From a virus: a stretch of 64,000 nucleotides of DNA. Numbering within the stretch: the stretch's first letter is position 1; every line of letters starts with the position of its first letter. The stretch covers positions 2,813 through 66,812 of IMG/VR virus record IMGVR_UViG_3300046804_005087; one strand, written 5' to 3'. Positions 56 to 63,630 of the stretch are shown piece by piece. Both the position numbers and the translations under genes were made by a program. The notes below the pieces were generated by a model. That model searched no databases, was not told where the DNA came from, and saw only the letters and a program-made list of their open reading frames with translations.

Positions 56-87
56 TGGGGTTATAGCAAACAACAGAGGTTTTTCAA

Positions 88-7892: not shown

Positions 7893-8531
7893 CTATTTTA
7901 ACAACTTAAACTCAAGTACCCAAACCCAGGGGTTAGACGCCCAAGGATGTTTTTTGTTGTCACTGTCCCATAGATTTTGAAAAGCAGTACGCAATTCATG
8001 TCGGGGGTAGTCTAATCCTGGGCAAAAACTTTCCAGCCCTTCGGCCATCGCATCCTTTTCACTAATATCATTCAACCGTTCAACCCATACATCAGTAATC
8101 TCTAAAGTTATGCGAGATGCTGCGCGGGGCATGTGGATTGAAGGTTTCCATTTAACGGGTTTTCCCGTCCGTCCATCAATGCCAGCAATATAAACGTTAG
8201 CTTCAGGATAGAAAGTTTCGGTTTTATACTTAATATTGCCATCCGATAAGATAGCAAATGTTTCCCGCACCCATAATCGATCATCAACTTCTCCAAATGG
8301 GCATTTAATTTGTCGGCAATATTTCTTGTGAGGTTCACCTGGCACATGGGTTAGTGTTTCAAAATCCCGTGTTTCTGGATTGATTCGCTCAATTGTTTTA
8401 AAAACAACCGACTCACCTTTTTTGCTAACCATATCCGGCTGTGGCTTAACAACCCGCCGTGACTGTGTTTTACGCCCGTCAAGGATGGCGCGCACCATCT
8501 CGCCGCTAAATAAAATTGGTTTTTCTTTCAT
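7893..8531 (-). CDS. ASCH/PUA-like phage protein
   Basis: MKEKPILFSGEMVRAILDGRKTQSRR...WKPSIHMPR...NPWVWVLEF; start ATG 8531 after GAGG SD. Confidence 0.8.
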   Translation of the reverse strand: MKEKPILFSGEMVRAILDGRKTQSRRVVKPQPDMVSKKGESVVFKTIERINPETRDFETLTHVPGEPHKKYCRQIKCPFGEVDDRLWVRETFAILSDGNIKYKTETFYPEANVYIAGIDGRTGKPVKWKPSIHMPRAASRITLEITDVWVERLNDISEKDAMAEGLESFCPGLDYPRHELRTAFQNLWDSDNKKHPWASNPWVWVLEFKLLK

Positions 8532-8562
8532 ACCTACCTCAAATGTTTGCTCGATTTCTTCC

Positions 8563-8735: not shown

Positions 8736-9500
8736 ATGGGACGCCAACGCCAACGTCGAGTTGATACTGCTAGCTGGGATGACGTTGAGTCGTCCTATTT
8801 TTTTGACAACGTAGTGCCACTAGTCCCCAACCGCAAAACTTTCAAGCCTCTAACCCCTAATCACCATCGGTTAATCCACCATATCCGCAATAGTCCGATC
8901 ACGATAATCAATGGGCCCGCCGGTAGTCTCAAAACGTTTCTGAGCTTGCAGACCCTGATACAGCTAATCGACGATGGCACTTATGACAAAATTGTGTATA
9001 TCCGTCAGCGTATTCAACGCCCCCATGAGCCAGAATTGGGCTCTTTACCGGGCGATAAGAGTGAGAAGCTACACAAACTACTTGCGCCGATTTTGGATAA
9101 CCTGGAGGCGATTCTAAGTCCCTATGCAGTTGACGAATTCATCAAAACTAAAGTTGAATGTTCTGATATTGAATCGTTGCGGGGGCGATCACCGTTACGG
9201 TCTTGCCTATTCTGTGATGAGGCGCAAAACTGTGATTTAACAGCGCTAGAGACTATCATGACCCGTCGCACTGAATGTTCTAAATTAGTACTGGCTGGGG
9301 ATTTTAAAGGGCAACGGGATATTTTAGACCGGGAATTTGATGCTTTTGAGTTGGTTTGTAATGAATTTGAAGGCAAGTTTCCAATCATCCATCTAACAAA
9401 AAATGACATCCTACGGTCTGAGACTAACAAGGATGTCATCACGGGTTTTGAACGAATTAAAGAACGATTACAACTTATTGGTGTTTGTCCCCCTGCATAA
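8736..9500 (+). CDS. phoH: PhoH-like ATPase
   Basis: GPAGSLKT, LGSLPGD, LRGRS, DEAQN, AGD motifs. Confidence 0.9.
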   Translation: MGRQRQRRVDTASWDDVESSYFFDNVVPLVPNRKTFKPLTPNHHRLIHHIRNSPITIINGPAGSLKTFLSLQTLIQLIDDGTYDKIVYIRQRIQRPHEPELGSLPGDKSEKLHKLLAPILDNLEAILSPYAVDEFIKTKVECSDIESLRGRSPLRSCLFCDEAQNCDLTALETIMTRRTECSKLVLAGDFKGQRDILDREFDAFELVCNEFEGKFPIIHLTKNDILRSETNKDVITGFERIKERLQLIGVCPPA

Positions 9501-9657
9501 TTTTGTGGATATTAGCTTTAACCCGATTGCCTAACAAATCATAGGCATCGTTAACAATATCCTCGGCAAACTCAGAACGGATAGACTGCAACTCATCTTT
9601 AGTTTGAGCGTCAATCATGCGTTCAGCCGCATCTAAAACATAAGTAGTTCTGTTCAT
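9475..9657 (-). CDS. Hypothetical protein
   Basis: 60-aa ORF preceded by the CTAAGCAAGCA leader motif. Confidence 0.55.
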   Translation of the reverse strand: MNRTTYVLDAAERMIDAQTKDELQSIRSEFAEDIVNDAYDLLGNRVKANIHKIMQGDKHQ

Positions 9658-9798
9658 ATCAAATTAATTGTGCTTGCTTAGTGCCCACATTGTACACACT
9701 CAACCATTTTATCGTCAAGCGATGTCGTGGGGTCAAGGTAAAATAGTTGGGTATGTTATAATGGCGATCGCAAACTAACAAAATAGAGGGATAGTGTA

Positions 9799-10059
9799 AT
9801 GCCAAGACCGCCAAATCCTGACAATCCGCCTTGCGAGTCGTGCGGGTCTAACCGGGTTTCCGTTCACCGACATCTTGACAGCGGCAATACTCAGTACCGC
9901 TGTAACGAGTGCAAGAAAACTTGGACACCCAATAAAAAACCTCATGCCAGGGCGGGTAAGGGGAAATTAAAATACATGGATAGACCGTTGTCTAATGCCG
10001 AACATCAACGGCTATGGCGGCGGAAACAAAAGTTGTTAAAAAAGTTGAAGCCCGACTAA
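9799..10059 (+). CDS. Zinc-ribbon protein (InsA-like N-terminus)
   Basis: CESC...YRCNECKK; C-terminal PLSNAEHQRLWR. Confidence 0.7.
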   Translation: MPRPPNPDNPPCESCGSNRVSVHRHLDSGNTQYRCNECKKTWTPNKKPHARAGKGKLKYMDRPLSNAEHQRLWRRKQKLLKKLKPD

Positions 10060-11745: not shown

Positions 11746-12186
11746 TTAATCAAACTGATTGGGTTTGTCTTTAACTTCTTGGTAGTATTGCCAGTAAAAC
11801 TGAGTCGGATCTTGTGGGCCAACGGCTTCAATTGCTTTGCGACAAATTGACTCAAAAATCACAGAGATTTCTAACAATTCGGCATCAGCGGCAATCTTAG
11901 AAACCATATTAGCCGTGCGAGTGTAAATCAGATTTAACCCTTTAGCAAAACTACCGGGAATCCCGGCAATATTTGCCGCAATGTCGATAAACCGTAGGCG
12001 GTATTGAATCTGATTAATAACGGGTAAATCTTCATCATTGTACTCTTCGGCGTCTAAATTCAGGGCGTTAATTGCCGCCTCTAAACTTGCAAATTCAGCC
12101 GTCAGGTCTACCCCTTTAGGAGTGTTTTTCTTAGCCTGATTCAATCCTTGAATCATTTGATTGCGCCAACGTTCTAACATGCTCAT
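11746..12186 (-). CDS. Hypothetical protein (probable late gene)
   Basis: 146-aa ORF with GAGG SD and TTAAGATAG motif upstream. Confidence 0.65.
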   Translation of the reverse strand: MSMLERWRNQMIQGLNQAKKNTPKGVDLTAEFASLEAAINALNLDAEEYNDEDLPVINQIQYRLRFIDIAANIAGIPGSFAKGLNLIYTRTANMVSKIAADAELLEISVIFESICRKAIEAVGPQDPTQFYWQYYQEVKDKPNQFD

Positions 12187-12267
12187 AAAATCCTCAAAAC
12201 AAAGTAACCTACATTCCTATCTTAATGTCTGCCCCATAACAGATATGTGCTGACAAAATAACTAAAA

Positions 12268-12417
12268 TCATTTCGCTTTGGTGTTTTTAGGTGGGTGTCC
12301 GTTTTTATCCCATCCATATCTAAGCATCCGCTCATACTCACCTGGAATAGGTTTCAAAGCAAGTGGAATGTCGTTGTGATAGTTCCATTGGTAACGTAGA
12401 TCAATGTTTTCAGCCAT
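12268..12417 (-). CDS. Small hypothetical protein (49 aa)
   Basis: MAENIDLRYQW... with GAGG upstream; not in the ORF track. Confidence 0.4.
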   Translation of the reverse strand: MAENIDLRYQWNYHNDIPLALKPIPGEYERMLRYGWDKNGHPPKNTKAK

Positions 12418-12447
12418 TATGTTTAGCCTCGAATTACAGAAACAACA

Positions 12448-12909
12448 TCACAATAGAACAGATTGAAACCCATTGTTAGTCAATGTATCTTGAATTTCTG
12501 TTAGCATTTCATCCGTTAAAATTAACCCAACTTCACGAGCTGCTAACAAAAGACCGCTTACAGCCATTTGCAAAGCTGCTAATTTATCAAAATTTGTCGG
12601 GTCATCTTTTCCGCGTTCAATGGTTAACCCCACGGCTGCCATTGCCCACGCTATACCAGGATGAGTAATAGAATTGCTATACAAAAATCGGTAAGTTTGT
12701 GACAATCGCAATTGATCGTAAAAGCCGTTCCAATCAGCCGATGGCGCTTGAATAAGCGGATCGGGCTCAGGCATAATTTCATAATGCCCCGCATCATAAG
12801 CCGCCTGCAAAATTGACAGCGTAGGTTCACTATATGCCGACAAATCAGGCACACCATTTATTACTACAACAAGAGTTTTTGTGTTGTATGAATGCAATAA
12901 AATAATCAT
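12448..12909 (-). CDS. Probable tail-fibre-associated protein/chaperone
   Basis: ATGA-coupled to the upstream fibre-like gene; PEPDP linker then helical domain. Confidence 0.5.
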   Translation of the reverse strand: MIILLHSYNTKTLVVVINGVPDLSAYSEPTLSILQAAYDAGHYEIMPEPDPLIQAPSADWNGFYDQLRLSQTYRFLYSNSITHPGIAWAMAAVGLTIERGKDDPTNFDKLAALQMAVSGLLLAAREVGLILTDEMLTEIQDTLTNNGFQSVLL

Positions 12910-15766: not shown

Positions 15767-15795
15767 ACCTAAACCTAGACGACCCTACTACTATC

Positions 15796-16824
15796 TTAAA
15801 AATCGTCCCAGCCGCTAACACCTGACGACATAACATAGCTAGTAACAGTAGCCTCAAAGAAATTGGCTTTAGTATGAGCTTGTTTACCGGTATCCGCAAA
15901 GTTTTCTAGGTGTCCATAGGGTGACTGATTAAAGCCTGGGAAAATTTCATCTAAGCCAATTGCTTTTAGTCGTTTATTAGCAAGAAACTTAACGTACTTT
16001 TCAGTTGAATCTTCTTTGATGCCTAAAATGTCATTACCAATAATATGGTTAGTCCAATTGATTTCTTGCTTAGCCGCCTCAGCAAAAATTTCATAAATCT
16101 GGTCAAGGGATGGCTTGAACGTGACGATCGCCTCTGGTAAAATCTTTTGATATAACCGAACGTGGCTTAACTCATCGCGATTAATCATGCGAAAAATATC
16201 GGCACTACCCGCCATTAATTGACGACTAGCTAAATTATAAAAGTAATTAAATCCAGTGTAAAAATAAAGCCCCTCCAACACGTAATCTGCCAGCAATGCA
16301 ATAAAATAGTTTTCATCACTAGGGTCATCCACATACTTTTGATATAAGCCTGCAATATACTGGCATCGCTCTAAAAGCACCTTATCTTCCCGCCAAAAGT
16401 CATAAACTTTATCTCGTTTTTCTGTTGGGATAATAGTTTCAATCATGTATTGATAGCTCTGGTTATGCATTCCTTCTTGGCTAATTTGTTCTGCCATGCA
16501 CAGACTAATTTCGGGGGCAGTAACTGGTAGTTTTAAATGGGGAATGTTGCAAGTTTGCACAGAATCTAGGAAGGTTAAATAGGATAAAATACCATCAAAA
16601 GCCCGACTTTCACTATCGGTTAAATTGTTATAATCGGTAACATCAGCAGTCAGATCAATCCGTTGCGGGATCCAGAAATTCTCACGCATTTGTTGATATA
16701 AACTAACTGCCCATTGATACCGGACATCATTAAGTTGCATAAGATTTGTTGTTTCCCCAAACCACACAGTCCGAGACTCAATAGCATCGTTACCAGATGG
16801 ATTAAAAATAGGTGTTGATTGCAT
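15796..16824 (-). CDS. nrdB: Class I ribonucleotide reductase beta subunit
   Basis: ENFWIP, LDSVQ, QEGMHNQSY, LEGLYFY, RDELSH, NFFE; cyanobacterial-type N-terminus. Confidence 0.95.
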   Translation of the reverse strand: MQSTPIFNPSGNDAIESRTVWFGETTNLMQLNDVRYQWAVSLYQQMRENFWIPQRIDLTADVTDYNNLTDSESRAFDGILSYLTFLDSVQTCNIPHLKLPVTAPEISLCMAEQISQEGMHNQSYQYMIETIIPTEKRDKVYDFWREDKVLLERCQYIAGLYQKYVDDPSDENYFIALLADYVLEGLYFYTGFNYFYNLASRQLMAGSADIFRMINRDELSHVRLYQKILPEAIVTFKPSLDQIYEIFAEAAKQEINWTNHIIGNDILGIKEDSTEKYVKFLANKRLKAIGLDEIFPGFNQSPYGHLENFADTGKQAHTKANFFEATVTSYVMSSGVSGWDDF

Positions 16825-18656: not shown

Positions 18657-19004
18657 CTATACGATTTTGTTTAGATGCCATTCGTCATCCGTATCGTAGT
18701 TGAACAAAAATTCAGTGATACCTAAACGATTAACAAAGTCTTTTGCAATTTCACTTAAATCCGTATCTGAGAAAGACGGAATGTCAAAGTAGGCGGAGTA
18801 ATATTCTTTTTCAAGACGATTAACCCATGTTAGCGCTTTAGCGCCCGTACAAACGGGGTTTCTGAACTGAATGAATGTGTCGATTTTAGTCGCCTCCCAT
18901 TCCACGTTTTCAATATCCGGCGTCGCCACCGCTTCTTGGGCGGCGCGAAAAACTTGCTTGATTGGAATCTGGGACTTGAATTTGACAGTAGCCATTATGG
19001 TCAT
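18657..19004 (-). CDS. Hypothetical protein (probable early gene)
   Basis: ATG 19004 after GAGG SD downstream of module copy B promoter. Confidence 0.65.
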   Translation of the reverse strand: MTIMATVKFKSQIPIKQVFRAAQEAVATPDIENVEWEATKIDTFIQFRNPVCTGAKALTWVNRLEKEYYSAYFDIPSFSDTDLSEIAKDFVNRLGITEFLFNYDTDDEWHLNKIV

Positions 19005-19038
19005 AAAACTTACCTCAAATGTTTGCTCAATTTCCCTC

Positions 19039-20031: not shown

Positions 20032-20367
20032 TTAGAGCTTAGACACTTTTACACTGACACGCCCCTGGGATGGCTTAGCGATGCGTTTAAACGCGGCTTT
20101 GGACAGGTCTATTGAACAGTTACCGCACCGGTCGGTGATGGTTACGATAACAGATTTGCCAGTACGCCGGTTAGTCACCTTGACCCGTTGCCCTAGTCGG
20201 TAACGGTTACTCGCAGCGGTCATCGCATTAGGGTTGTAACGCGCCCCATTTGCCATTTTGCGCCCCGATAAACTGGGATGGTAGTAGGTAGCAGTTTGGG
20301 CGTTGATCGGGGCGTGGGGCAGTAGAATTGACGCGCCTAGAATAATAGCAATGAGTCTGTTTTGCAT
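20032..20367 (-). CDS. RlpA-like double-psi beta-barrel lytic transglycosylase with signal peptide
   Basis: ATYY...MANGARYN..MTAA...VKVTN...VTITDR..IDLS.AAF. Confidence 0.88.
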   Translation of the reverse strand: MQNRLIAIILGASILLPHAPINAQTATYYHPSLSGRKMANGARYNPNAMTAASNRYRLGQRVKVTNRRTGKSVIVTITDRCGNCSIDLSKAAFKRIAKPSQGRVSVKVSKL

Positions 20368-20432
20368 GATGTTTGCTTAGCTAAATTACAAACATTTTAA
20401 ACATAGTTAATCATTTTACGCAACTGGTTATT

Positions 20433-21548: not shown

Positions 21549-21689
21549 CAGGTTTTCTCCTATGTAGTTTAGGGGTTAACTAAAGTCCTCCAGGTGAGAC
21601 TGGGGGCACTACTCTATCTTAATTGCTTGCCCTAGACTCAAACATTTGATAAACGCAGGCACAAAAAAACACCACACGCCACACGCCGC

Positions 21690-21926
21690 TTAATCAAACG
21701 TCACGCCAAAGTCAACGCCTAGCACAGACTCAATTTTTTGAAGTGTTTCAAGCGGTATTGATTGCTTTCCCGATTCAATTCGATACCAATTAGCAGTAGT
21801 CATCCCAGCCAAGCCACAAATCTGCGTGATGGTTCGATCATCGTTTAGCCTAGCTTGCTTGATTCTTTCGTTCAACGCCGGGACTTGCACCCGCACAGTC
21901 TTAACTACTTCCATTGTCACTGGCAT
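21690..21926 (-). CDS. XRE-family HTH regulator
   Basis: RIKQAR...ICGLAGMTTANWYRIESG...LQKIESVLGV. Confidence 0.85.
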   Translation of the reverse strand: MPVTMEVVKTVRVQVPALNERIKQARLNDDRTITQICGLAGMTTANWYRIESGKQSIPLETLQKIESVLGVDFGVTFD

Positions 21927-21948
21927 GATGGAACACCTCAATCTTACT

Positions 21949-22414: not shown

Positions 22415-22462
22415 TCGCCCTGGCAGCTAAGCAAATTAATTTAAACCATTACCGGGGGCGTA

Positions 22463-22690
22463 ATGCCCCTTACTACCATGACTAAAGTTGAACTGAATCG
22501 CATCTTAAAATCAGCCGGTCTTGACCCAAAAGCCTACAAATGCAAAAAGGAAACCTACTGGAAAATTTATCCCCAACCATACGAGAAGCCTCGTTTTGCT
22601 GAAAATATGGAGAGCTTAAAGGCTTATCTATCTAACAACGGGATTAAGTTTTTCGACAAATATGCCGACTGTTTTCAAATTTACGCCTAG
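22463..22690 (+). CDS. Hypothetical protein
   Basis: Preceded by GCTAAGCAAA and AAACCATTACCGGGG leader motifs. Confidence 0.6.
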   Translation: MPLTTMTKVELNRILKSAGLDPKAYKCKKETYWKIYPQPYEKPRFAENMESLKAYLSNNGIKFFDKYADCFQIYA

Positions 22691-22725: not shown

Positions 22726-23418
22726 ATGTTGACAATCACAGAACAAACTCAAGTCAAAAAATGGCTCCAAGCCGAATTAGACGGTGAACAATTCTCGGTA
22801 GACTTCGATGTTGCCTGGGTTATGGCAGGGTACAGCCGGAAAGACCATGCAAAACGTCGGCTAACTAATCAGTCATCTTTCTTAATTAAAGGGGAAGATT
22901 ACATGATTAACCCAAATGATGATCTACTCCCCCAATCGGGGGAATGGACGTCAGAAGGGCGTTTGAGTGACCGTATAGTATTATCATGTGACGCTTTTAA
23001 ACATTTTTGTTTAATGGCACAAACCACCAAAGGACGTGAAATCCGACAGTATTTCATCGAAGTAGAGAAAGCTTTTAACGCTGGCTACTCTGATGAGTTA
23101 CCCTCACGAGATATGTTAAATCGTGAAATTCAATGGTTACGGGATGAGTTAGCCAAATCCTATGCCGAAAAGTACAACGAACCTAAAAAGTTCCGTATTC
23201 ACTACCTCGAAACTGATACCCACTACGTTTACACATTGGTCTGTGTGCTTGGCGATCGCCGTTACGTTGAACTGATGAGCCATTCAATTCCCACGGTTAT
23301 CAAGGACAGCTTTAAACAGTCCTTGATGACACAATTTTATGCCCTGGTAGATTTATTAAACGCCATGAGTCGGGACTACAAGCCAGCGTTAAAAGGGACA
23401 GTTTACAGTTACAAATAG
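22726..23418 (+). CDS. AntA/AntB-like antirepressor
   Basis: VDFDVAW..AGYSRK.HAKR...DAFKHFCLMAQT.KG.EIRQYFIEVEK. Confidence 0.75.
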   Translation: MLTITEQTQVKKWLQAELDGEQFSVDFDVAWVMAGYSRKDHAKRRLTNQSSFLIKGEDYMINPNDDLLPQSGEWTSEGRLSDRIVLSCDAFKHFCLMAQTTKGREIRQYFIEVEKAFNAGYSDELPSRDMLNREIQWLRDELAKSYAEKYNEPKKFRIHYLETDTHYVYTLVCVLGDRRYVELMSHSIPTVIKDSFKQSLMTQFYALVDLLNAMSRDYKPALKGTVYSYK

Positions 23419-35079: not shown

Positions 35080-35128
35080 AATGCCAACCTAAAAGCTTAA
35101 ACTAACCCTCATTATCTATCTTAAAACC

Positions 35129-35904: not shown

Positions 35905-36636
35905 TTGAGCGTTTTACAATGGTCGGCAACTGAAATCCGCATTCACGAACTCGCTAAGCGGGTTTGTGAACTGTACAATAACGCTGAACTCAAAAAACTT
36001 ACCAAGGTGAGTCCCCAGACCATCCGTCGGTGGGCCCAGGGTTGGGAGGATAAGGGGAATAGACCTACTGAATCAACCGCGATGTGTTTACCGGCGATTC
36101 TGGCAGTCAGTGAGAATAATTATCAACGGTATTTAAATGGGGACATAACCCTAGATGAATTTTGGGATCTCAAGGGCAGTGCCAAAATAACAGCCGGCAC
36201 TGAAATTACGGTAGAGTCAGTCCTAAACGACGCCAAACGACTATCTACAAGTGACTTGCTCAAGTTAATGTCCAATCTGTTTTTAATCATCGTTCCCAAG
36301 GAATTAAACGAATTACAAGCCGAACCCCAAACTGAGTCCCCTAGATGGGTGGAGTTGAATGAAACGGCAAAAAAGCGTCTAAGCACCCTACTGAATCTGT
36401 CCAATCTTTACCTTGAGCAGACCTATCAATCCATCATTGAAGCGGGGGCAGACAAAGGGTTGGTAGAAGACATGACCAATGGAGGATTTAAAAACAATTA
36501 CACCGAACCTATTTACTATACTCTACTCCCTTTCCTATGCCACTGCTCAAAATGGCACGGGGTTGTACCCTCCGATGCTAACCCCGCTCAGTACTTTGAT
36601 TCTGTCGAACAATTGGAAGCTTCACTTAATAGCTAA
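35905..36636 (+). CDS. HTH transcriptional regulator (repressor-like)
   Basis: ELKKLTKVSPQTIRRWAQG...RP; AGGAGG SD. Confidence 0.6.
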   Translation: MSVLQWSATEIRIHELAKRVCELYNNAELKKLTKVSPQTIRRWAQGWEDKGNRPTESTAMCLPAILAVSENNYQRYLNGDITLDEFWDLKGSAKITAGTEITVESVLNDAKRLSTSDLLKLMSNLFLIIVPKELNELQAEPQTESPRWVELNETAKKRLSTLLNLSNLYLEQTYQSIIEAGADKGLVEDMTNGGFKNNYTEPIYYTLLPFLCHCSKWHGVVPSDANPAQYFDSVEQLEASLNS

Positions 36637-37361
36637 ATACTAGCTAACACTTTTTCCTTGCCTTGACGACAGATTTCATCTAACTTTTCCCAGTTCACGC
36701 CTAACGTTAGCATCGCCATTAACGGTTCTTCAGTGAGTGCCGTATATTCCCGGTCGTCTAACACATCGGCGCAACGGACGCTTAGTAGTTTTGGCTCATC
36801 GTTGTCCAACACGTCGAATACGTCTACTACGTCACCGTCGTTGGCTTTTAACTGGGTTACAAACCGATATTTGTAATCTCGTTCATTTGATGGCGGTTTA
36901 ATTTGGCGATCGCCCTGAGCTTCCTCCTGAATTAGTGCTTTTATCCACCGATACGCATAGCTAGAAAATTTAATCTCCTTGCCGTCCACTACTGGCTCAT
37001 ACAGGTACAGAGCATAGATTAAGCCGATATGCCCCGCTTGAATTAAATCATCGGGGTTTAATTTGTTATTGCGGCGGTGTTTGCGGTGCGCCTCACTAAT
37101 CACCATGGCGGTGTTATGGGCAATGAGTTGATGCATGGCCTTTTCTGCCCTGAGTATCTCTGGGGTGTTTTTAATTCTTGCCCGCGCCGCCCGTAGTTTC
37201 AATTTTTTCCATCCCCCGCCAAAAGATTTTTTAACTTCCAGAGATAGTGCATCCTTCAACGGCTTAAAATCCTGCCACAATTGCCGCTGCTCAATTTTAG
37301 TTAACGAGCGTAGTTTGATGCGAGAAGCCATAATCCCTGTAACTCGTAATGTCTGAATCAT
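36633..37361 (-). CDS. Phage sigma70-family factor with degenerate region 4
   Basis: Region 2 LIAHN..MV...DDLIQAGHIGL..A...FSSYAYRWIK; C-terminal LDDRE...LGVNWEKLDEI. Confidence 0.88.
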   Translation of the reverse strand: MIQTLRVTGIMASRIKLRSLTKIEQRQLWQDFKPLKDALSLEVKKSFGGGWKKLKLRAARARIKNTPEILRAEKAMHQLIAHNTAMVISEAHRKHRRNNKLNPDDLIQAGHIGLIYALYLYEPVVDGKEIKFSSYAYRWIKALIQEEAQGDRQIKPPSNERDYKYRFVTQLKANDGDVVDVFDVLDNDEPKLLSVRCADVLDDREYTALTEEPLMAMLTLGVNWEKLDEICRQGKEKVLASI

Positions 37362-39397: not shown

Positions 39398-39460
39398 AGT
39401 TTTTTCTGTGGTTGGTTTGATTGTGCCCCTACTTAGCGAGAGAGGCGATCGCCAAATTAA

Positions 39461-39607: not shown

Positions 39608-39673
39608 GGTAGTTATCCTTTAGTGGTTGGTTTACGTTACCCATGCTTAGCGAGAGGGGCGATCGCCGGTTGA

Positions 39674-39874
39674 TTATTCAATGTTAGATTCTACATACTG
39701 AGTAATCAGCTCAGCTAAATTGTCGGGAGCTGGAGTGCCGTTATCATCCGACTCCCACCATTTTTCAGTCATTAATTGATTGACTGCTTTTTCTACGTCA
39801 CCATCAAACGGCTTTACAAATTCAGCGGTGGTGATTTGTCCAACAAATAGCTCGTATGCAGTGAAAGCGTCCAT
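39674..39874 (-). CDS. Small acidic hypothetical protein
   Basis: AAAGGA SD; first gene of a small-gene cluster. Confidence 0.65.
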   Translation of the reverse strand: MDAFTAYELFVGQITTAEFVKPFDGDVEKAVNQLMTEKWWESDDNGTPAPDNLAELITQYVESNIE

Positions 39875-39977
39875 GGTAGTTATCCTTTAGTGGTTGGTTT
39901 GCTTAGCGGGCTTGGCGTGTTTCGCTTGCCTCCATGTAATTACTATCTCACCCCTCCCCATGCCTATCATGTTGTAT

Positions 39978-44295: not shown

Positions 44296-44333
44296 AATTA
44301 ATGTTTAGAATAGACACAGCTATCTTAAAAATT

Positions 44334-49815: not shown

Positions 49816-49873
49816 AATAAATTTAACCCTCTTAGGTCTATCTTAAAGAGGGTTAAAATGCCAAAATTATTGA

Positions 49874-51318: not shown

Positions 51319-51360
51319 GTGGGGAATTAGGATAGTGGCAACTGATAACATGAGGTTCTG

Positions 51361-51933
51361 ATGACGGTTTTAGTTGATCACGAAATAGCGTCTCTGGCCA
51401 GAGGGGAGATACCGATTCACATTTTGGTGGACTACTCACACAGAGGCCATAACCTAAGCCCGCGTATTTTGCCCCTGGTAAAGCCGTTTGACCCCGACCT
51501 AGTCAATCCCCATAGTCTCGACCTACGGATAGGGGAGACGGCTAAATTGCGGGTGATGGGGGGGTATAAGGAAATCGACCTATCTGGCTACTGTGCGGAT
51601 AGACCCTACATGATGATTCCAGGCGATCGCCTATTGGTGGCAAGCCTGGAAACATTCAACATCCCAATATTTCTCGAAGCGACCTTTTATCTGAAAAGCT
51701 CACGGGGGCGGGAATGGTATGGGCACCAATTAGCAGGCTACATTGACGCGGGGTGGCACGGGTCAAAACTGACCATGGAGATTACCAATGATGACATTGA
51801 GCCGTTGCCCCTATACTTTGGGATGAAATTTGGGCAGTTAGCTTTCCGATTGCTGAATAGTATTTCCAGCAAATCTTACGCTAAAGTAGGTCGTTACAAT
51901 AACGATGTATGTGTTATGGAGAGTAAGGGTTGA
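51361..51933 (+). CDS. dcd: dCTP deaminase
   Basis: NPHSLDLR, KSSRGRE, AGYIDAGWHG..TMEI, GQL, GRY. Confidence 0.9.
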   Translation: MTVLVDHEIASLARGEIPIHILVDYSHRGHNLSPRILPLVKPFDPDLVNPHSLDLRIGETAKLRVMGGYKEIDLSGYCADRPYMMIPGDRLLVASLETFNIPIFLEATFYLKSSRGREWYGHQLAGYIDAGWHGSKLTMEITNDDIEPLPLYFGMKFGQLAFRLLNSISSKSYAKVGRYNNDVCVMESKG

Positions 51934-52066
51934 TGGCTAGTTTTATTTACTGTTTTTATATGTGGCTCACTCATTTATTGGCAACAGACTCTAACTCTTT
52001 TTGGTGGATATTAAACGGGCATCTGTTTCAAATAAATCAACGAATAGAAACTTTTGAGAAAGACTA

Positions 52067-52408
52067 ATGACTGGTATCTACAAAACCCGTGCTAATTATC
52101 AAAATAAAACTGTTGACTATCAATCTTTGATTAGCGCTGAATGCGACAAGGTTAAGGATATGTTGCTAGAAAAAAACCGTAAATACGGCAATAGTGCTTT
52201 AGACCCTAAACGGATATTTTCTAGCGCCGATCCTATTGAACAAATTAACGTCAGAATTGACGACAAACTAAGCCGCATCGCTTCTAATCAATCTGACGAC
52301 ACAGAAGACGCTGAGCTTGATTTGATTGGTTATCTAATTCTTAAACGGGTCGCTAAACAACGAAATAACGAATTGCAGAACTTGTTTGGAGCAAACCATG
52401 ATACCTAA
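52067..52408 (+). CDS. DUF1599 (nucleotide-modification-associated) protein
   Basis: LEKNRKYGNS...VRIDDKLSR...DLIGY. Confidence 0.75.
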   Translation: MTGIYKTRANYQNKTVDYQSLISAECDKVKDMLLEKNRKYGNSALDPKRIFSSADPIEQINVRIDDKLSRIASNQSDDTEDAELDLIGYLILKRVAKQRNNELQNLFGANHDT

Positions 52409-52601
52409 AGAATGCCAAGAATTAACATTAGAGCAAAGCTTAGAAATGCGTATGATTGCAGACAATGTAGCTAAAATGCCCGCTGATGAGCTACGCACTC
52501 ATATTTTATGGTTGTCTAAAATGCTGATGATTAAAGGCAACATCTTAAAATATTTTATGAGCAAGGAATTAAAAGTTAATCTCAAAAGTGCTAAAAAATA
52601 A
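52398..52601 (+). CDS. nblA: Phycobilisome degradation protein NblA
   Basis: ELTLEQ..MR.....V..M...E.......M.IK.N helix-loop-helix pattern; GGAG SD. Confidence 0.75.
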   Translation: MIPKECQELTLEQSLEMRMIADNVAKMPADELRTHILWLSKMLMIKGNILKYFMSKELKVNLKSAKK

Positions 52602-53260
52602 TGGCTTATAGTCTATCGGATTTAGTTTACTCAGAACGTCAGCGGCGATACCTGTTTCCGTCCGGTAGGCTAGTGCCAGAATCGCAAGTTAATAAATACA
52701 TCAAGTCGTTTCAGGCAGTCTATCTTAAGCGGGTTGTTGACGACACTAACGCTCTGGTTAACGGTAATTTAACCGCTAGGGAGTGGGAAGAAAAAACTGC
52801 GTTAAATATTAAAGATGTCCACGTTGCTTTAATGCGGTTTGGTCGGGGTGGAAAAGACAAAGCCTACGCGATGCAATACCTAGACGTTGCTAACGAATTA
52901 AGAACGAATCAGTACCCTGCATTCAGATTGTTAGTGCAAGATTTAAGGGATGGTAAATTGTCCCGTAAAATGCTCGATTATCGCCTCTCACGGTTTATTC
53001 AAAGTAGTCGGGTATCGTATGAAATGGGGCGGCGTTCCTATGCAATTTATGATGATAAAAATACCCATGCTTTGCGTAAATTAGACGCCCAAGCCAAACA
53101 CTGTGAAGACTGCGTTAGATACGCTGCAATGGGCATTAGACCGATTGGACAATTACCAGTACCGGGGCAAGCGTGTAAGTGTGCCCAGGCTTGTAAATGC
53201 TCGATTTACTATGGTAGTGAGATGAGTTTAATTGAGTTGAAAAATGGATGGCTAGCCTAA
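52601..53260 (+). CDS. Minor head/MuF-like morphogenesis protein
   Basis: AKHCEDC...LPVPGQACKC...CKC C-terminus. Confidence 0.7.
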   Translation: MAYSLSDLVYSERQRRYLFPSGRLVPESQVNKYIKSFQAVYLKRVVDDTNALVNGNLTAREWEEKTALNIKDVHVALMRFGRGGKDKAYAMQYLDVANELRTNQYPAFRLLVQDLRDGKLSRKMLDYRLSRFIQSSRVSYEMGRRSYAIYDDKNTHALRKLDAQAKHCEDCVRYAAMGIRPIGQLPVPGQACKCAQACKCSIYYGSEMSLIELKNGWLA

Positions 53261-53745
53261 TTGCTACAACAATCGACAAAGTTCAAACGATGACAGCAAT
53301 TCCTGTCAATCATGATTCTGACGTTCAACCTTCGGAGTTGTCATGGGAGGCGTTAGGCGCTATAGTTGGCTTGTTAGTTCCTGTCTTGACTGTATGCGTT
53401 TTATTTGGTAGTATTCAGGCTAATTTAAGCTTTGTTAAAGAGTCAATAGTAGAATTTAAAAATAGAGAAAAAGAAAAAGAAGAAAAGCATAGCAAGACCG
53501 TCAATGACTTAAAAAATGAAATTCATTCTACAGAAAAATCCTTATTAGAAAAACTCGAAGAATACCAAGAAGAGACAGAAATTAATCAAAAAGAAAAACG
53601 TGAAGAGTTTAAAGAATATTTATTAATGCATTTAAAAGAATTAATATTACCTCTGCATCGGGAAATTGATCAATTAAAAATCCTTCACCAGCGCCGGGAC
53701 GAGACTTTAAACGACCTCAAGCGAAAAGTGAAGGACTTAGAGTAA
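53248..53745 (+). CDS. Membrane-anchored coiled-coil protein
   Basis: One transmembrane helix followed by an E/K-rich coiled coil. Confidence 0.6.
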   Translation: MASLIATTIDKVQTMTAIPVNHDSDVQPSELSWEALGAIVGLLVPVLTVCVLFGSIQANLSFVKESIVEFKNREKEKEEKHSKTVNDLKNEIHSTEKSLLEKLEEYQEETEINQKEKREEFKEYLLMHLKELILPLHREIDQLKILHQRRDETLNDLKRKVKDLE

Positions 53746-53754
53746 GATTAAAAT

Positions 53755-53814
53755 ATAGAGTATTGACCTCTATGTTTGCTTAGCTGCCGCCTTCGCTACG
53801 TTGGGCGGCTTTTT
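53755..53814 (+). ncRNA. Candidate trans-acting antisense sRNA 1
   Basis: TAAGAT -10 (53743-53748), 5' hairpin ATAGAG/CTCTAT, seed GTTTGCTTAGCT, GCCGCC/GGCGGC-T5 terminator. Confidence 0.6.
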
Positions 53815-54126
53815 CTCGCTTGATAATCCCAATGACTTCATTGATTAGCTCAGAAGTAGGGTTTAAATCCATGTGGCGTATCGCCCGTTTAGCTGTTTCG
53901 GTTAAGCGCTGTTCTGCATAGAAGTCCCGGTGTTTTAGCGCGTCTTCAACGGTGTCCAAATGCCAGTTGCCCCAGCCATCGCCTTGCTGGTAGCCAGAAT
54001 CACGGTAGAATTTTTTACCATTAGCAACTAACGTAACTTTGTTAACTTTTCGACTGTAGCGATTGTAAAATCTTGACCAATAATCAACGCTACAGTATCG
54101 CCTTTTTGTAAATGTTCAAAGCTCAT
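53780..54126 (-). pseudogene. Frameshifted homolog of 55382-55729
   Basis: MSFEHLQKGDTV...TVE then one base short at 54047-54050, continuing KVNKVTLVANGKKFYRDSG... Confidence 0.55.
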
Positions 54127-54143
54127 TGTAATTACCTCTATCG

Positions 54144-54392
54144 TTAAAATTCTAACTTGCTTAATTTGTGAATTTGCTTTTTTAGTGAAGCAACTTTTAG
54201 ATCACGAATTTTGTTGGCTTGCTTCAATGCATCTTCTTTGTTAAAAAATGCCTGATTTCCAAAAAACAGCATCCATCCTTTAGGAAAACTGTCATCGTAA
54301 CAGATAATGGCTTTGTCGCTATAAACCTTCCCAGGATATTCAAGGATTCCACGGGTTAATGCGTATTTTGTGACATAAACTTTTTGCATCAT
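54144..54392 (-). CDS. Hypothetical phage protein
   Basis: VYVTKYALTRGI... conserved-looking small phage protein. Confidence 0.65.
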   Translation of the reverse strand: MMQKVYVTKYALTRGILEYPGKVYSDKAIICYDDSFPKGWMLFFGNQAFFNKEDALKQANKIRDLKVASLKKQIHKLSKLEF

Positions 54393-54410
54393 GTTTGCCT
54401 TTAGTTTTGA

Positions 54411-55382
54411 TTAATTTAAAACCGCTTCGATGATTTTTTGCATCATGAGCGGGGGAACGGCATTACCGATCATTTTGGTGTCTAATTTTAGATCGCCACT
54501 AAATTGATACCAATCAGGAATAGTTTGCCAACGGGCTAAGCATTGAGTATTAGCTTCGTAGGGTTGACCATCAATAACAATTGTGGCTTGTTTAGGAGAT
54601 ACCCTTACTTTGCCTGACATCGCCTTGATCGTGAACATCGGCTGATGTGCAAAACGGATTGTGTTGTTTGGGATGCCGTCTTTTTTCCTGGATCCGCTTC
54701 GTTGAATGACAAAATCCCCCATCCATTTCAGAAGCGTTGTGTGAACGGCGCCAGCGCCCTTGTGGTAATTGATGATCGACTCTTTTTGCCAATTGGTTAA
54801 TGTTGTTAGTTTGAGAGTGGGGATTAGATCGGCGATCGCCTCATACCAGTTAATAGGCTTTTGGTTTTTCCATTCAATATTATACAGTCCTTGTATTTTT
54901 CCCCAATGCTTTGAGGCGACTAAAAATAATCGTTTACGTGATTGTGGTACGCCATAATCAGAGCAGTCAAGCAAGGACTGTCCAACATAATAATCATTGT
55001 TTTTTAAGCAACGTTTAATGTTGGCAAGCGATTTGAAACTGGCATATCCTGCCACATTTTCCAGGCTAAAATAATCAGGTTTTAGCGTTTCAATCGCCCG
55101 ACAAATAGCATTAGCCAATTCAATGTCTTCTGAGGTTTCTTTACCATTCTTAGCCCGTGATGCGTTGATACATGGCGGGGAAGCATGGAGCCAGTCGGGG
55201 CTATTAAGAGTTTGCCAATACAATGACTTAACATCAATCGTGTAAGTGTGATGTTCAAAATTATTGCAGGCAATCTCAGCAATATTATCGTCAATCTCAA
55301 CGCCCCAGATGGGTGTTAACCCTGCTTGCATAGCGCCTATATCCGCGCCGCCCATGCCTGTAAAAAGACTAGCAAATTTCAT
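54411..55382 (-). CDS. DNA (cytosine-5) methyltransferase
   Basis: SLFTGMGG, SPPC, ENV, QSRKR, GNAV. Confidence 0.93.
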   Translation of the reverse strand: MKFASLFTGMGGADIGAMQAGLTPIWGVEIDDNIAEIACNNFEHHTYTIDVKSLYWQTLNSPDWLHASPPCINASRAKNGKETSEDIELANAICRAIETLKPDYFSLENVAGYASFKSLANIKRCLKNNDYYVGQSLLDCSDYGVPQSRKRLFLVASKHWGKIQGLYNIEWKNQKPINWYEAIADLIPTLKLTTLTNWQKESIINYHKGAGAVHTTLLKWMGDFVIQRSGSRKKDGIPNNTIRFAHQPMFTIKAMSGKVRVSPKQATIVIDGQPYEANTQCLARWQTIPDWYQFSGDLKLDTKMIGNAVPPLMMQKIIEAVLN

Positions 55383-55729
55383 TAGTTAGATTCCTCAAAT
55401 TGACTGATTAATTGTTTAATTTGTTTCAACTGTTCAAGGCTTAATTGACGAGAGCGAGAATGATAAAGGCTAAAATAGTCATCAAATTCATGAATTAGGT
55501 TAGTCCTTTGAAACTCATCCAAGTATTCTTGCTGAGTTTTGTAAATCTTGATTAATGGGGTATAGTCCCCAGCATCTTCAAGCATTGTTTCTTTATAGAA
55601 TCGAGCGCGAAAGACATCTAAGTAAAAATACTTTCTGCCTATCCGTGTTACTGTGGCGAATCCTGTTTCTTTTTTATTCCATTTTTTTACCCAAAAAACA
55701 GTGTCGCCAACTTTCAAATCAAACATCAC
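55382..55729 (-). CDS. Hypothetical beta-barrel phage protein
   Basis: LKVGDTV...VTRIGRKY. Confidence 0.65.
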   Translation of the reverse strand: MMFDLKVGDTVFWVKKWNKKETGFATVTRIGRKYFYLDVFRARFYKETMLEDAGDYTPLIKIYKTQQEYLDEFQRTNLIHEFDDYFSLYHSRSRQLSLEQLKQIKQLISQFEESN

Positions 55730-58337: not shown

Positions 58338-58372
58338 GATTAACAGCTAAGCAAATGTATGGAGTGTCTACC

Positions 58373-58865: not shown

Positions 58866-58997
58866 ATGTACCTGTCTAATCCCCATCCTGTCACCCGCAT
58901 TAAACAGACCGCTAAATCTAGTTACTACCGAGCTTCTGTCAGGCTCGGTTTTAAATTAGTGGCGATCGCCCTAGCAAAAACATTAATCAAAGGCTAA
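58866..58997 (+). CDS. Small hypothetical protein
   Basis: 43-aa ORF within the operon. Confidence 0.35.
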   Translation: MYLSNPHPVTRIKQTAKSSYYRASVRLGFKLVAIALAKTLIKG

Positions 58998-59004
58998 GCA
59001 AACC

Positions 59005-61317
59005 ATGAACTATCAAGATTTTTTGTCCAATAAGCTGTCTAAAGTTACGCCGTCTGGGTTTGATATTGCCCTTAATGACCTTCCTGATTGTCTTTTTGAT
59101 TATCAAAAATTTGTAGTGCAGTTAGCATTGCAAAAGGGTAAGTTTGCCATATTTGCCGGGACAGGTTTAGGAAAGTCTCTCATGCAATTAGTTTGGGCGT
59201 TAGAAGTTAATCGTCACACTAACCGCCCCGTTCTGATTCTTGCTCCCTTAGCAGTAGCTAAACAAACGGCAGGGGATGAGTGTACAAAGTGGGGGATTAA
59301 CGCCCAATACTGCGAGTCTCAAGCCGACGTAATCAATGGCATCAACATCACCAATTATGAGAAGTTAGGCAAGTTTAGTCCTGATACTTTTGCTGGTATT
59401 GTATTGGATGAAAGTTCAATCCTTAAGGGATTTAACGGCAAAATGCGGAGTCAATTAATTGAGGCTTTTGAATATACTCCTTATAAGTTGGCTTGCACTG
59501 CTACCCCTAGCCCTAATGACTACATTGAATTAGGGAACCATTGCGAGTTTTTAAACGTGATGAGCCGTGATGAGATGTTAGCGACGTTTTTTGTTCACGA
59601 TGGCAAAGTGTCGTTAACTGATGAGATTTGGAAACTCAAAAATCACGGCAAAATTAAATTTTGGGAATGGCTTGCATCATGGTCTGTTATGTTTCAGAAA
59701 CCTAGTCATTTAGGTTTTAGTGATGATAATTACCAACTCCCTAAACTCATTGAGCATGAGCTAACAATTGAGTCTGGTATTGTACGGGAAGGTGAACTGT
59801 TCACCATGGAGGCACGGGGATTAATTGAGCAACGCCATGCTAAACGCTCAACTATTGACGACCGTGTTAAAGCTGCCGCCGATTTGATTAATGCTAGTGA
59901 TGAACAGTGGCTTGTCTGGTGCGATCTTAACGATGAATCCGCCGCCCTAGCCGCCGCTATTAACGATTGTGTTGAGGTTAAAGGGTCTGATAAAGACTCC
60001 CATAAAGAGAACGCCGCCATTGACTTTGCACATGGCAAAATCAAAGTCTTAGTTTCAAAAGCTTCTATTTTTGGATTTGGGCTAAACTTTCAATCTTGCC
60101 ACAATATGCTATTTGTCGGGCTTTCTAATTCTTTTGAGTTAACCTATCAAGCCGTCCGGCGGTGCTACAGGTTTGGGCAAACTCAAGATGTAAATGTCTA
60201 TTATGTAGCCGTTGACATTGAGGGAGCCGTCCTTAAAAATATTCAGAAAAAACATCGTAAGTTTGAAGAAATGCAAGCTAACATTGCCAGTCATTTCTTA
60301 TCTGCCTATCACGCCATCACTGCTAAAAAAGACTACGATCTTACTAAAGCCATGACTAGCCCTATTCTCGAAGTTAAAGACGGTTTATGCCTTGACCAAA
60401 AACATGGGCAAAACTATTCTAGTTTCCAAGGTGATTGTGTTGAATTGATTAAAGCCGTCCCTGATGACAGTATCGGTTACTCTATTTTTAGCCCACCTTT
60501 TGCGAATCTTTTTACTTATTCCGATTCTCTTCACGATATGGGGAATGTTACCAGTGACGACCAATTTACGGAGCATTACAAATTCCTTTTGAGTGAACTT
60601 TATCGCGTTATGATGCCCGGTCGGCTGGTATCCGTTCACTGCCAAGATTTAATTGCCACTAAGACTAAAGACGGCTTTATTGGCATTAAAGACTTCTCTG
60701 GTTTAATGATTCAGTTAATGCAAGAATTAGGGTTTGTTTATCACAGTCGCGTCACTATCTGGAAAGATCCGGTTTGTCAAATGCAACGACTCAAACCCAT
60801 TGGTTTACTTCACAAACAAGTAGAAAAAGACTCAAGTTTAAGCCGTCAAGGATTACCTGATTACCTGGTAACATTCCGCAAGCCAGGAGAAAATACAGAG
60901 CCAATCGAAGGGCGTTTAGTTGAGTTTTACGGGGAAGATTTGCCTCCTATCAGCAATGATCCTAAATGGCATTCTATTAACGTGTGGCAGCGGTACGCTA
61001 GCCCTGTATGGATGGATATTGTCCAAAATGATACTTTAAACTTTCGTGAGGCTAAGGAAGATGATGATCATAAGCATATTTGTCCCTTACAATTGACGGT
61101 TATCCGTCGGGCTTTGCAGCTATGGTCTAACCATGGCGATGTTGTTTTGAGTCCCTTTGCTGGTATTGGTTCGGAGGGTTATGTCAGCTTAGATATGGAT
61201 CGCAAGTTTGTAGGCTTTGAGCTTAAAAAATCTTACTGGGATTGCCAAGTTAAAAACCTAGAATATATCGAAAACAAACCTAAACAACTTGCATTGTCAG
61301 ATTTGATTGCCGTCTAA
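59005..61317 (+). CDS. SNF2-like helicase fused to amino (N4C/N6A) DNA methyltransferase
   Basis: GTGLGKS, LDES, TATP, QAVRRCYRFGQ; FSPPF, HICP, SPFAGIGS. Confidence 0.9.
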   Translation: MNYQDFLSNKLSKVTPSGFDIALNDLPDCLFDYQKFVVQLALQKGKFAIFAGTGLGKSLMQLVWALEVNRHTNRPVLILAPLAVAKQTAGDECTKWGINAQYCESQADVINGINITNYEKLGKFSPDTFAGIVLDESSILKGFNGKMRSQLIEAFEYTPYKLACTATPSPNDYIELGNHCEFLNVMSRDEMLATFFVHDGKVSLTDEIWKLKNHGKIKFWEWLASWSVMFQKPSHLGFSDDNYQLPKLIEHELTIESGIVREGELFTMEARGLIEQRHAKRSTIDDRVKAAADLINASDEQWLVWCDLNDESAALAAAINDCVEVKGSDKDSHKENAAIDFAHGKIKVLVSKASIFGFGLNFQSCHNMLFVGLSNSFELTYQAVRRCYRFGQTQDVNVYYVAVDIEGAVLKNIQKKHRKFEEMQANIASHFLSAYHAITAKKDYDLTKAMTSPILEVKDGLCLDQKHGQNYSSFQGDCVELIKAVPDDSIGYSIFSPPFANLFTYSDSLHDMGNVTSDDQFTEHYKFLLSELYRVMMPGRLVSVHCQDLIATKTKDGFIGIKDFSGLMIQLMQELGFVYHSRVTIWKDPVCQMQRLKPIGLLHKQVEKDSSLSRQGLPDYLVTFRKPGENTEPIEGRLVEFYGEDLPPISNDPKWHSINVWQRYASPVWMDIVQNDTLNFREAKEDDDHKHICPLQLTVIRRALQLWSNHGDVVLSPFAGIGSEGYVSLDMDRKFVGFELKKSYWDCQVKNLEYIENKPKQLALSDLIAV

Positions 61318-63595: not shown

Positions 63596-63630
63596 GATAT
63601 TCAGTTAAGCAAGCAACCACAGAGACAATT

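Follow-up and report, generated by a model that had tools for sequence, protein, structure and literature searches.

In a 64,000-nucleotide (nt) window of DNA from an uncultured freshwater cyanophage (bases 2813–66812 of the 66.8-kb IMG/VR virus record IMGVR_UViG_3300046804_005087, called G000 in comparisons), we identified at 53748–53814 a cassette without an open reading frame (ORF) that is composed of a promoter-like 9-mer, a hairpin, the segment ACCTCTATGTTTGCTTAGCTGCC and an intrinsic terminator. The reverse complement of this segment is a leader box, AG(C/T)TAAGCAAAC, that occurs in sense orientation before phage genes. The anatomy of the cassette, the enrichment and orientation of the box, the conservation of the cassette in related phages, the covariation of cassette and boxes and a promoter-class motif together show that the feature is real and conserved and make it a well-founded candidate for a regulatory RNA of the phage, whose regulon would span several genes. 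On sequence grounds we consider it somewhat probable that a late-expressed small RNA, or an RNA from the 3′ untranslated region (UTR) of an operon, pairs with the 5′ ends of early phage mRNAs. Comparisons draw on three relatives found through a 219-amino-acid (aa) protein encoded upstream of the cassette (gene 52601–53260), which is 96% identical in L008 (a 2.3-kb contig), 81% in G002 (a 72.7-kb contig) and 73% in G001 (an 18-kb fragment).

Anatomy of the cassette and its leader boxes

The cassette occupies the spacer between convergent gene groups, a plus-strand operon at 51361–53745 opposing minus-strand genes, and forms the 3′ UTR of that operon. A first-pass annotation of this DNA had described a unit of −10 element, 5′ hairpin, anti-leader segment and terminator, and every one of these parts lies where it had been placed (coordinates of all features are given in the table below). 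The promoter-like motif TTAAAATAT implies a transcription start near 53761 if TAAAAT serves as the −10 element. The annotation had chosen the neighboring TAAGAT for this role; the hexamer is present, but it counts as an alternative −10 only and is not kept in L008, which reads TAATCT. The ATAGAG and CTCTAT arms of hairpin 1 (53755–53760 and 53768–53773) extend in the fold to a 10-bp stem reaching 53751–53777, which is one pair longer in L008, and two loop bases (53764 and 53766) are missing in contigs of two metagenome runs. An 8-nt linker, GCUUAGCU, separates hairpin 1 from the terminator hairpin in the fold. The terminator acts on the plus strand only, with no U-run following the hairpin on the minus strand, and a scan of 52800–54600 returned it as the only terminator-like site, on the plus strand.

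RNA folding distinguishes the two strands of the cassette. The plus-strand RNA of 53746–53816 folds at −22.7 kcal/mol with a z-score of −3.6 and none of 200 shuffled sequences equally stable, and the plus strand is more stable than the minus strand in all four spacers (−22.7 versus −17.5, −28 versus −20.8, −26 versus −22 and −27.6 versus −25.1 kcal/mol). In a ~55-nt RNA starting at ~53761, the first 25 nt are predicted to be wholly unpaired ahead of the terminator, anti-leader seed included, and the conserved seed core is unpaired in the folds. RNAs that start upstream, for example by read-through from the operon, are the only ones in which hairpin 1 would hide the anti-Shine-Dalgarno (SD) part of the seed. 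On the minus strand, no −10 element precedes the box copy in any of the four phages inspected, and no start codon follows the SD-like GAGG of the box copy in the window or L008. Two other readings of the locus were considered and rejected: a lost or hidden minus-strand gene for the orphan copy, as no promoter or small ORF is conserved in the four spacers, and a MotA box or −35 element in TTTGCTTA on the plus strand, for which a suitably spaced −10 is absent. Rfam yielded no match at gathering score over the window and, at E-values up to 1, only a chance 16-bit match to a Giardia small nuclear RNA model and nothing relevant.

The window contains ~6 strong and ~5 weaker or moderate box sites, mostly at small genes with sigma-70-type promoters. 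Most box genes encode small proteins of unassigned function, joined by a DPBB/RlpA-like protein and a helicase-methylase, and all strong box copies are sense to the downstream gene. Complementarity to the segment reaches 14 Watson–Crick pairs at 20369–20382 and 11 each at 58993–59003 and 39897–39907, all places named in the first-pass annotation, which also listed sites that we recovered at 9671–9681 (11 pairs including one G-U), 8543–8551 and 19019–19027 (9 pairs plus GAGGT) and 65–80. Three of its longer duplexes shrink when G-U pairs are set apart: the 15 bp reported at 22422–22436 comprise 14 Watson–Crick pairs (22422–22435) and one G-U, the 16 bp at 58344–58359 comprise 12 Watson–Crick pairs (58344–58355) and reach 16 only with G-U, and the 14 bp at 63602–63615 include two G-U pairs. 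The proposal of at least 10 target genes depends on the ~6 strong and ~5 moderate sites, the shorter sites being at chance level; the short match claimed at nblA is reached by 19 of 300 shuffled seeds, and those at 3880–4371 and 22726–23418 by 35 and 68 of 300.

Enrichment of the box over chance is evident in several counts. GCTAAGCAAAC with at most one mismatch has 10 matches against 1.46 expected, a number reached in 0 of 100 shuffles, and exact AGCTAAGCAAA occurs four times against 0.09 expected. Elsewhere in the 66.8-kb genome, exact complements of 53755–53792 number five at a length of at least 11 nt (0.73 expected; 2 of 500 shuffles) and three at a length of at least 12 nt (0.17 expected; 0 of 500 shuffles), and all five of the former are sense-strand leaders just upstream of start codons. 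When 6-mers were counted without bias over 92 leader windows, TAAGAT (11 versus 1.07 expected) and GCAAAC (10 versus 1.66) came out on top. The position of the box relative to promoters is likewise constrained: TAnnnT ends 10–13 nt before GCAAAC in 8 of 24 G000 box leaders against ~2 expected (per-offset background 0.02), and a 13-nt TAnnnT-GCAAAC gap occurs in 4 of 25 G002 leaders against 0.5 expected. Because this spacing is enriched, the full 12-mer is placed ~7 nt after the −10 element, at the transcription start or adjoining it. The box is predicted to sit at roughly +1 to +12 of the mRNA, and the predicted first base of box-gene transcripts is the A of AGCUAAGC, which lies 7 nt downstream of the −10.

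Conservation and covariation in related phages

The cassette is found at the same place after the 219-aa-gene operon in L008, G002 and G001, and the three relatives share one order of parts: a TTA..AT motif, a hairpin, a U/G-rich block with TGCTTA(G/A)C and an intrinsic terminator. In a four-way alignment, the core TGCTTA(G/A)C and the promoter-like TTA..AT are invariant, and the spacers are unalignable outside the named blocks. A terminator is present in all four spacers, with an L008 stem nearly identical to that of the window and unrelated stems in G002 and G001. The surroundings vary as well: the ORF directly upstream encodes 176 aa in G001, 24% identical to the 165-aa ORF of the window, and G002 has no such ORF; the convergent gene differs between phages; and no ORF is conserved in the cassette across the four phages. 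The box itself is kept in both members of four G000/G002 ortholog pairs (40–77% protein identity) with the rest of the leaders diverged. The G002 ortholog of 20032–20367 (77% identity) retains the box despite a diverged leader, and the G002 genes 12115–12570 and 6388–6594, orthologs of 58355/58373–58825 and 9475–9657, also carry it.

Comparison of G000 and G002 reveals that the element follows the box variant of its own phage, the kind of covariation between small RNA and targets that the first-pass annotation had put forward as a check. G000 boxes are mostly AGCTAAGCAAA(C/T), read AGCTAAGC, and the G000 element reads AGCT, …GCTTAGCT; strong G002 boxes read AGTTAAGC or AGTTAAGCAA in five of five cases, and the G002 element reads AACT, …GCTTAACT. 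The covarying sites are C/T at box position 3 and T/A after GCAAACA, where T occurs in the G000 element and three G000 leaders and A in the G002 element and leaders. Beyond the core, the G000 element complements GCAAACAT, as found in three leaders, and the G002 element complements GCAAACAA, as found in its leaders. This pattern shows the element and its predicted partner boxes evolving together. CCTCT, the complement of the AGAGG SD sequence in many box leaders, is present in the elements of G000, L008 and G001. G001 carries two different anti-leader blocks in tandem, and these seed blocks could not be matched to targets in its 18-kb fragment, which is without box-bearing leaders and the early region.

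Searches beyond these relatives define the reach of the feature. The distant relatives G003–G005, with 39–53% identity in the 219-aa protein, have no recognizable cassette after the gene and no box excess. No further relatives were found with the 165-aa protein as query, and the only addition from a search with the large terminase TerL was a 5.8-kb contig, which stops short of the cassette region. Downstream of a distant homolog of the 219-aa protein, at L026:4090–4170, is a tRNA-like T-arm sequence (GGTTCGAGTCC).

Further observations concern individual box leaders. Three tandem small minus-strand genes, with leaders at 39426–39453, 39640–39667 and 39897–39908, share a HIP1 site, GGCGATCGCC, together with CGCTAAG(C/T)A, and the duplication of small genes seems to carry the leader box along. 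At 9640–9800, a divergent promoter pair serves 9475–9657 (minus) and 9799–10059 (plus, with a weak zinc-ribbon match) with a box variant on each side, and the same divergent arrangement is found in G002 at 6300–6390. The box at 58992–59003 reads AGCTAAGC in a contig of one metagenome run, with a loose end at 58969.

Promoter classes, proposed mechanism and alternatives

The promoter-like motif of the cassette belongs to a set of 9-mers found before virion-type genes. Exact TTAAGATAG occurs in seven copies in the window against 0.59 expected, six of which precede virion-type genes, and TTAAGATAG and its variants TTAATATAG, TTAAAATAG, TTATGATAG and TTAGGATAG lie 22–36 nt ahead of virion-type genes in G000, G002 and G001. 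We take the 9-mer as the probable −10 region of a class of promoters specific to the phage, which the phage sigma-like protein encoded at 36633–37361 may recognize. One exact copy lies antisense inside the 219-aa gene (52720–52728, minus) and could be a chance occurrence or an antisense promoter. The cassette 9-mer matches TTAAGATAG, whose promoter status is itself presumed, at nine of nine positions in G001, eight in contigs of three metagenome runs, seven in the window and G002 and six in L008. In G001 the exact TTAAGATAG follows the upstream ORF, two bases beyond its stop codon, and an A53752G change in contigs of three other metagenome runs (~3% diverged over 1–1.9 kb) turns the window motif into TTAAGATAT; these run-contig differences comprise the best-supported ones only, and the absence of listed changes at 53757–53821 does not prove identity. 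A search for sequencing runs listed 12 from freshwater metagenomes, with none recorded as RNA. The G002 cassette has TTAAAATAA and, further on, cAAAGATAG, the L008 cassette has TTAGAATAT, and in G002 as in G001, 9 nt separate AAGATAG from the TGTTT of the seed. The upstream operon has its own promoter motif, TTAGGATAG, at ~51327.

Box genes follow a different type of promoter. The dispersed module that the first-pass annotation had linked to them is a near-consensus TTGACA-17-TAGAAT promoter of sigma-70 type, and the link holds, with AGCAAAC or AGCTAAGCAAA carried by five of seven module copies. Box leaders and TTAAGATAG-class leaders hardly overlap, and we infer that the box class is early and the TTAAGATAG class late. 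The earlier guess of late expression fits a cassette that follows a TTAAGATAG-class motif.

These features suggest a mechanism in which the cassette would encode a plus-strand non-coding RNA of ~55 nt, starting near 53761 under control of TTAAAATAT. Its 5′ part, UAUUGACCUCUAUGUUUGCUUAGCU, would be a single-stranded seed followed by the terminator hairpin, and this seed would pair with the leader box AG(C/U)UAAGCAAAC, and in some genes also with the nearby AGAGG SD sequence, within the first ~12 bases of mRNAs made from the sigma-70-type (TTGACA-17-TAGAAT) promoters. The RNA would accumulate when the virion-gene promoter class fires, as expected because cassette and operon both carry the motif otherwise found before virion genes. 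Once paired, the short leaders of box genes would be closed to ribosomes, targeted for decay or both; the effect expected is translational repression, which decay may or may not accompany, because the leaders are only 20–35 nt long, and the outcome would be post-transcriptional shut-off of an early gene set. A plus-strand RNA is the simplest functional product because an ORF-free cassette sits between a promoter-class motif and a terminator, and pairing with box mRNAs is the simplest account because the only conserved interior mirrors the leader box and SD sequence of the phage. From this arrangement we infer the making of a short RNA, its action in trans, repression and timing.

Several observations weigh against such an RNA. 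The promoter-like motif of the window fits the class 9-mer at only seven of nine positions, no −35 element is found at the window cassette, half of the seed is concealed by hairpin 1 in read-through RNA, and the G002 element lacks the anti-SD CCUC. Only two genomes hold both element and targets, making the covariation a single G000/G002 contrast; covariation and conservation are equally expected for the DNA or RNA site of a protein with one more copy; and the last codons of the convergent ORF overlap the core in G000 and L008, where part of the conservation may be coding. When G-U pairs are freely allowed, start regions contain 15 runs of 10 or more where 10.9 are expected, a number reached in 20 of 100 shuffles and not significant. 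On short leader segments, 11 leaders pair at −15 to −29 kcal/mol, energies reached by 0–1 of 300 shuffled seeds, and the leader of 9799–10059 at −16.2 kcal/mol, reached by 5 of 300, in a test that is partly circular, as its sites were chosen for holding the motif. RNA.duplexfold applied to 75-nt start regions produced implausible long-loop structures and no usable contrast, and was not used. The annotation had further argued that target variants are mostly A>G or C>U, changes that G-U wobble tolerates. This is true of the variants but uninformative, because the base composition of the 14-nt core (10 A/C versus 4 G/T positions) explains the bias. Leader rows with at most three mismatches contain 9 G-U-compatible transitions, 2 incompatible transitions and 9 transversions, rows with at most four contain 18, 7 and 31, and chance sites outside leaders contain 45, 25 and 196.

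Among the outcomes that the first-pass annotation had named as undoing its proposal is an orphan minus-strand copy of the leader motif, and a version of this in which the copy is read by a protein is weakened but still standing. The box would then be an asymmetric DNA site of a phage or host protein, an operator at +1 to +12, with 53774–53785 an extra site and no trans-acting RNA, a scenario that is the main rival but that we consider unlikely. Boxes do overlap predicted transcription starts and are co-oriented with transcription, the orphan points the same way as the minus-strand genes ending at that place, and sites and orphan covary as expected for one protein. Candidate proteins include an XRE-type helix-turn-helix (HTH) gene in G000 (21690–21941) and another in G002, where a weak integrase match also occurs, but an integrase was not found in G000. 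The usual targets of XRE repressors are palindromes, which the G002 box is not. The orphan also mirrors the spacer and SD sequence (ATAGAGG in G000 and L008, CAGAGG in G001), which an operator does not need, it invariably lies between a promoter-class motif and a plus-strand terminator, and G001 has two different anti-leader blocks side by side. A precedent for such dispersed sites is provided by the stoperators of mycobacteriophage L5, as cited in the accessible text of PMC3203893.

Alternatively, the box may work within the mRNA as a translation enhancer, a 5′-end stability element or a site for an RNA-binding protein such as a ProQ_C-like protein, and the cassette may be a decoy or a remnant of a leader turned around, with no regulatory pairing. 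Many leaders have the box at the mRNA 5′ end, two genes matching Phage_ProQ_C_like (PF24203) adjoin the cassette in G000 and one in G001, and the start-associated sequences (SAS) of Cluster K mycobacteriophages offer a parallel, with a single reversed copy away from gene starts in K1 phages according to the portion of PMC3203893 that describes them. We nonetheless judge this explanation quite unlikely: a relic would not keep the core and track box variants amid unalignable spacers, the minus-strand copy has neither a promoter nor a start codon after its SD-like GAGG, and PF24203 was not found in G002, which has the cassette. It is very improbable that the cassette is a mere operon 3′ UTR plus terminator whose likeness to the leaders is functionless. 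A terminator is expected at this place anyway, because the spacer lies between convergent operons, and a U/G-rich strand pairs promiscuously once G-U is allowed, but coincidence does not account for exact complements of at least 12 nt at a number absent from all 500 shuffles, or for a core that is kept in four otherwise diverged spacers and tracks the box variant of each phage. A small RNA that pairs with early leaders remains our preferred account.

Genome setting and comparison with known systems

G000 is a siphovirus-type cyanophage that encodes a portal, a large terminase, a 3761-aa tape measure protein and a lysozyme, along with NblA, a C5 methylase, a dCTP-deaminase-like protein and a protein with sigma-70 region 2. 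Among GenBank phages, only matches of ~30% identity were obtained, to Synechococcus phage S-CBS4 and Cylindrospermopsis phages, and no DNA match to G000 was found. The last ORF of the operon upstream of the cassette is 53248–53745. Pairing between the 5′ and 3′ ends of this operon was considered and dropped, as its own leader (51330–51361) is without a box.

The minus-strand group comprises a split ProQ_C-like ORF, an 82-aa ORF and a methylase. The split ORF (53780–54126) is divided in this record into 54028–54126 and 53780–53959, and contigs of all four compared metagenome runs have an extra T after 54046; its L008 counterpart is intact at 118 aa, with a weak match to PF24203 (25.8 bits versus a 27-bit cut-off). 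The split reflects either a frameshift in this phage or an assembly error. A clear Phage_ProQ_C_like protein is encoded two genes from the cassette at 55382–55729 (minus, 63.5 bits), and G001 also has such a gene (C1:16077–16403), with none found in G002. The C-terminal Tudor domain of ProQ has been linked to RNA duplexing in the available text of PMC9977716, and a tie between the ProQ_C-like proteins and the candidate RNA is possible. In contigs of three runs, 54140–55724 (82-aa ORF, C5 methylase and ProQ_C-like gene) is replaced by 230–246 other letters, and this segment looks like a swappable module beside the cassette.

Table. Positions of the cassette parts, leader boxes, promoter-class motifs and flanking genes in the window
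Feature	Position	Strand	Description
Promoter-like 9-mer TTAAAATAT	53748–53756	+	TTAAGATAG class; −10 hexamer TAAAAT at 53749–53754
TAAGAT	53743–53748	+	Overlaps TAA stop of ORF 53248–53745
Hairpin 1, AAAUAUAGAG / CUCUAUGUUU	53751–53777	+	From fold; one U-G pair
Anti-leader segment ACCTCTATGTTTGCTTAGCTGCC	53766–53788	+	Core 53774–53785 complements AGCTAAGCAAAC; CCTCT is anti-Shine-Dalgarno
Rho-independent terminator	53786–53814	+	Stem-loop 53786–53809, U5 at 53810–53814
Leader box	20369–20382	−	Before DPBB/RlpA-like gene 20032–20367; 14/14 complementary
Leader box	22422–22436	+	Before small gene 22463–22690
Leader box	58344–58359	+	7 nt after module promoter −10, before 58355/58373–58825
Leader box	58992–59003	+	Abuts ATG of helicase-methylase gene 59005–61317
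Leader box	39897–39907	−	Before small gene 39674–39874
Leader box variant CAGTTAAGCAAGCA	63602–63615	+	After module promoter, before gene starting at 63631
Leader box variant CTAAGCAAGCA	9671–9681	−	7 nt after TACAAT, before 9475–9657
Short box GAGCAAACAT + GAGGT	8536–8552	−	After module promoter, before 7893–8531
Short box TTGAGCAAACAT + GAGGT	19012–19030	−	After module promoter, before 18657–19004
Short box AGCAAACA + AGAGGT	65–80	+	After module promoter, before 88–348
TTAAGATAG copies before virion-type genes	12217–12225, 15791–15799, 21614–21622, 35116–35124, 44320–44328, 49838–49846	all −	
Upstream operon	51361–53745	+	dCTP-deaminase-like protein, 113-aa ORF, NblA, 219-aa protein, 165-aa coiled-coil protein
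Convergent ProQ_C-like ORF	53780–54126	−	Split here; TAA stop inside box copy; tail encoded by terminator

Temporal control of phage genes is usually ascribed to proteins, namely sigma factors, repressors and anti-terminators. If the proposed pairing is true, it would provide a simple mechanism for the early-to-late switch in a freshwater cyanophage with nblA and a sigma factor of its own. It would also yield a concrete hypothesis for SAS function in mycobacteriophages, therapeutic ones among them, and a compact switch of box and seed RNA that could be reused in cyanobacterial synthetic biology. In the literature surveyed, consisting mostly of titles and abstracts with the SAS and c4 papers represented in part, we found no single phage RNA that shuts off a set of its own early mRNAs through a shared leader box. 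Base-pairing small RNAs and SAS-like leader repeats are already known, and the cassette with its boxes is a variant of both. We tentatively entertain, as a real possibility short of an even chance, that one small RNA from its own late-class motif is the master anti-leader for about ten early mRNAs, turning them off post-transcriptionally as late transcription sets in, and that the same logic of many sense boxes and one reversed copy explains the Cluster K SAS; such RNAs would then form a widespread, so far undescribed class of phage riboregulators.

The closest published parallel, in the accessible portions of these sources, is the SAS of Cluster K mycobacteriophages, and the closest characterized phage antisense regulator is the c4 RNA of P1 and P7. 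In its available text, the description of SAS (Pope et al. 2011, PMC3203893) leaves function open, with an RNA or a protein as partner, and tests of SAS function were still called for in 2025 (PMC12699233, as far as its accessible text goes). Like the box described here, the SAS as described there is a short asymmetric repeat of 12–14 nt with ~10–20 copies in one orientation, stands before non-structural siphovirus genes, is kept at orthologs and has a single reversed copy off gene starts. The two differ in that the SAS contains the SD sequence and lies 3–7 bp from the start codon, whereas the present box is at the predicted mRNA 5′ end, 1–50 nt from the start, with a separate SD; the SAS consensus given there, GGGATAGGAGCCC, is unrelated to AGCTAAGCAAAC. 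In this phage, the reversed copy lies inside a conserved cassette of promoter-class motif and terminator.

The c4 RNA is cut from the transcript of its own operon. As an antisense RNA of the immI region of phages P1 and P7 (Citron and Schuster 1990, cited in the available text of PMC8198154), it resembles the candidate RNA in pairing with ribosome-binding regions of the phage's own mRNA and blocking expression. From what is described there, c4 differs in having its sites within its own operon and in serving immunity, whereas the candidate would have many unlinked targets and possibly its own promoter. No c4 covariance-model match was found in the window with Rfam at gathering score, nor a relevant one at E-values up to 1.

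Outside phages, MicL and DapZ of enterobacteria are 3′-UTR-derived small RNAs, each transcribed from its own promoter, located within the preceding ORF or after it. They share with the candidate a place at an operon 3′ end, a terminator common to RNA and mRNA, a single-stranded seed upstream of it and several targets in initiation regions, and they differ in being host-encoded and Hfq-dependent with host mRNAs as targets, whereas the candidate would be a phage RNA directed at the phage's own leaders in a cyanobacterial host. The stoperators of L5 are 13-bp asymmetric repressor sites, DNA sites bound by the immunity repressor, and like the box they are dispersed, asymmetric and oriented with transcription, as is the orphan copy, which is sense to the convergent minus-strand operon. 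They differ in being repressor-bound DNA; in the present phage only an XRE HTH gene is seen, and the reversed copy mirrors the SD sequence and is flanked by RNA signals.

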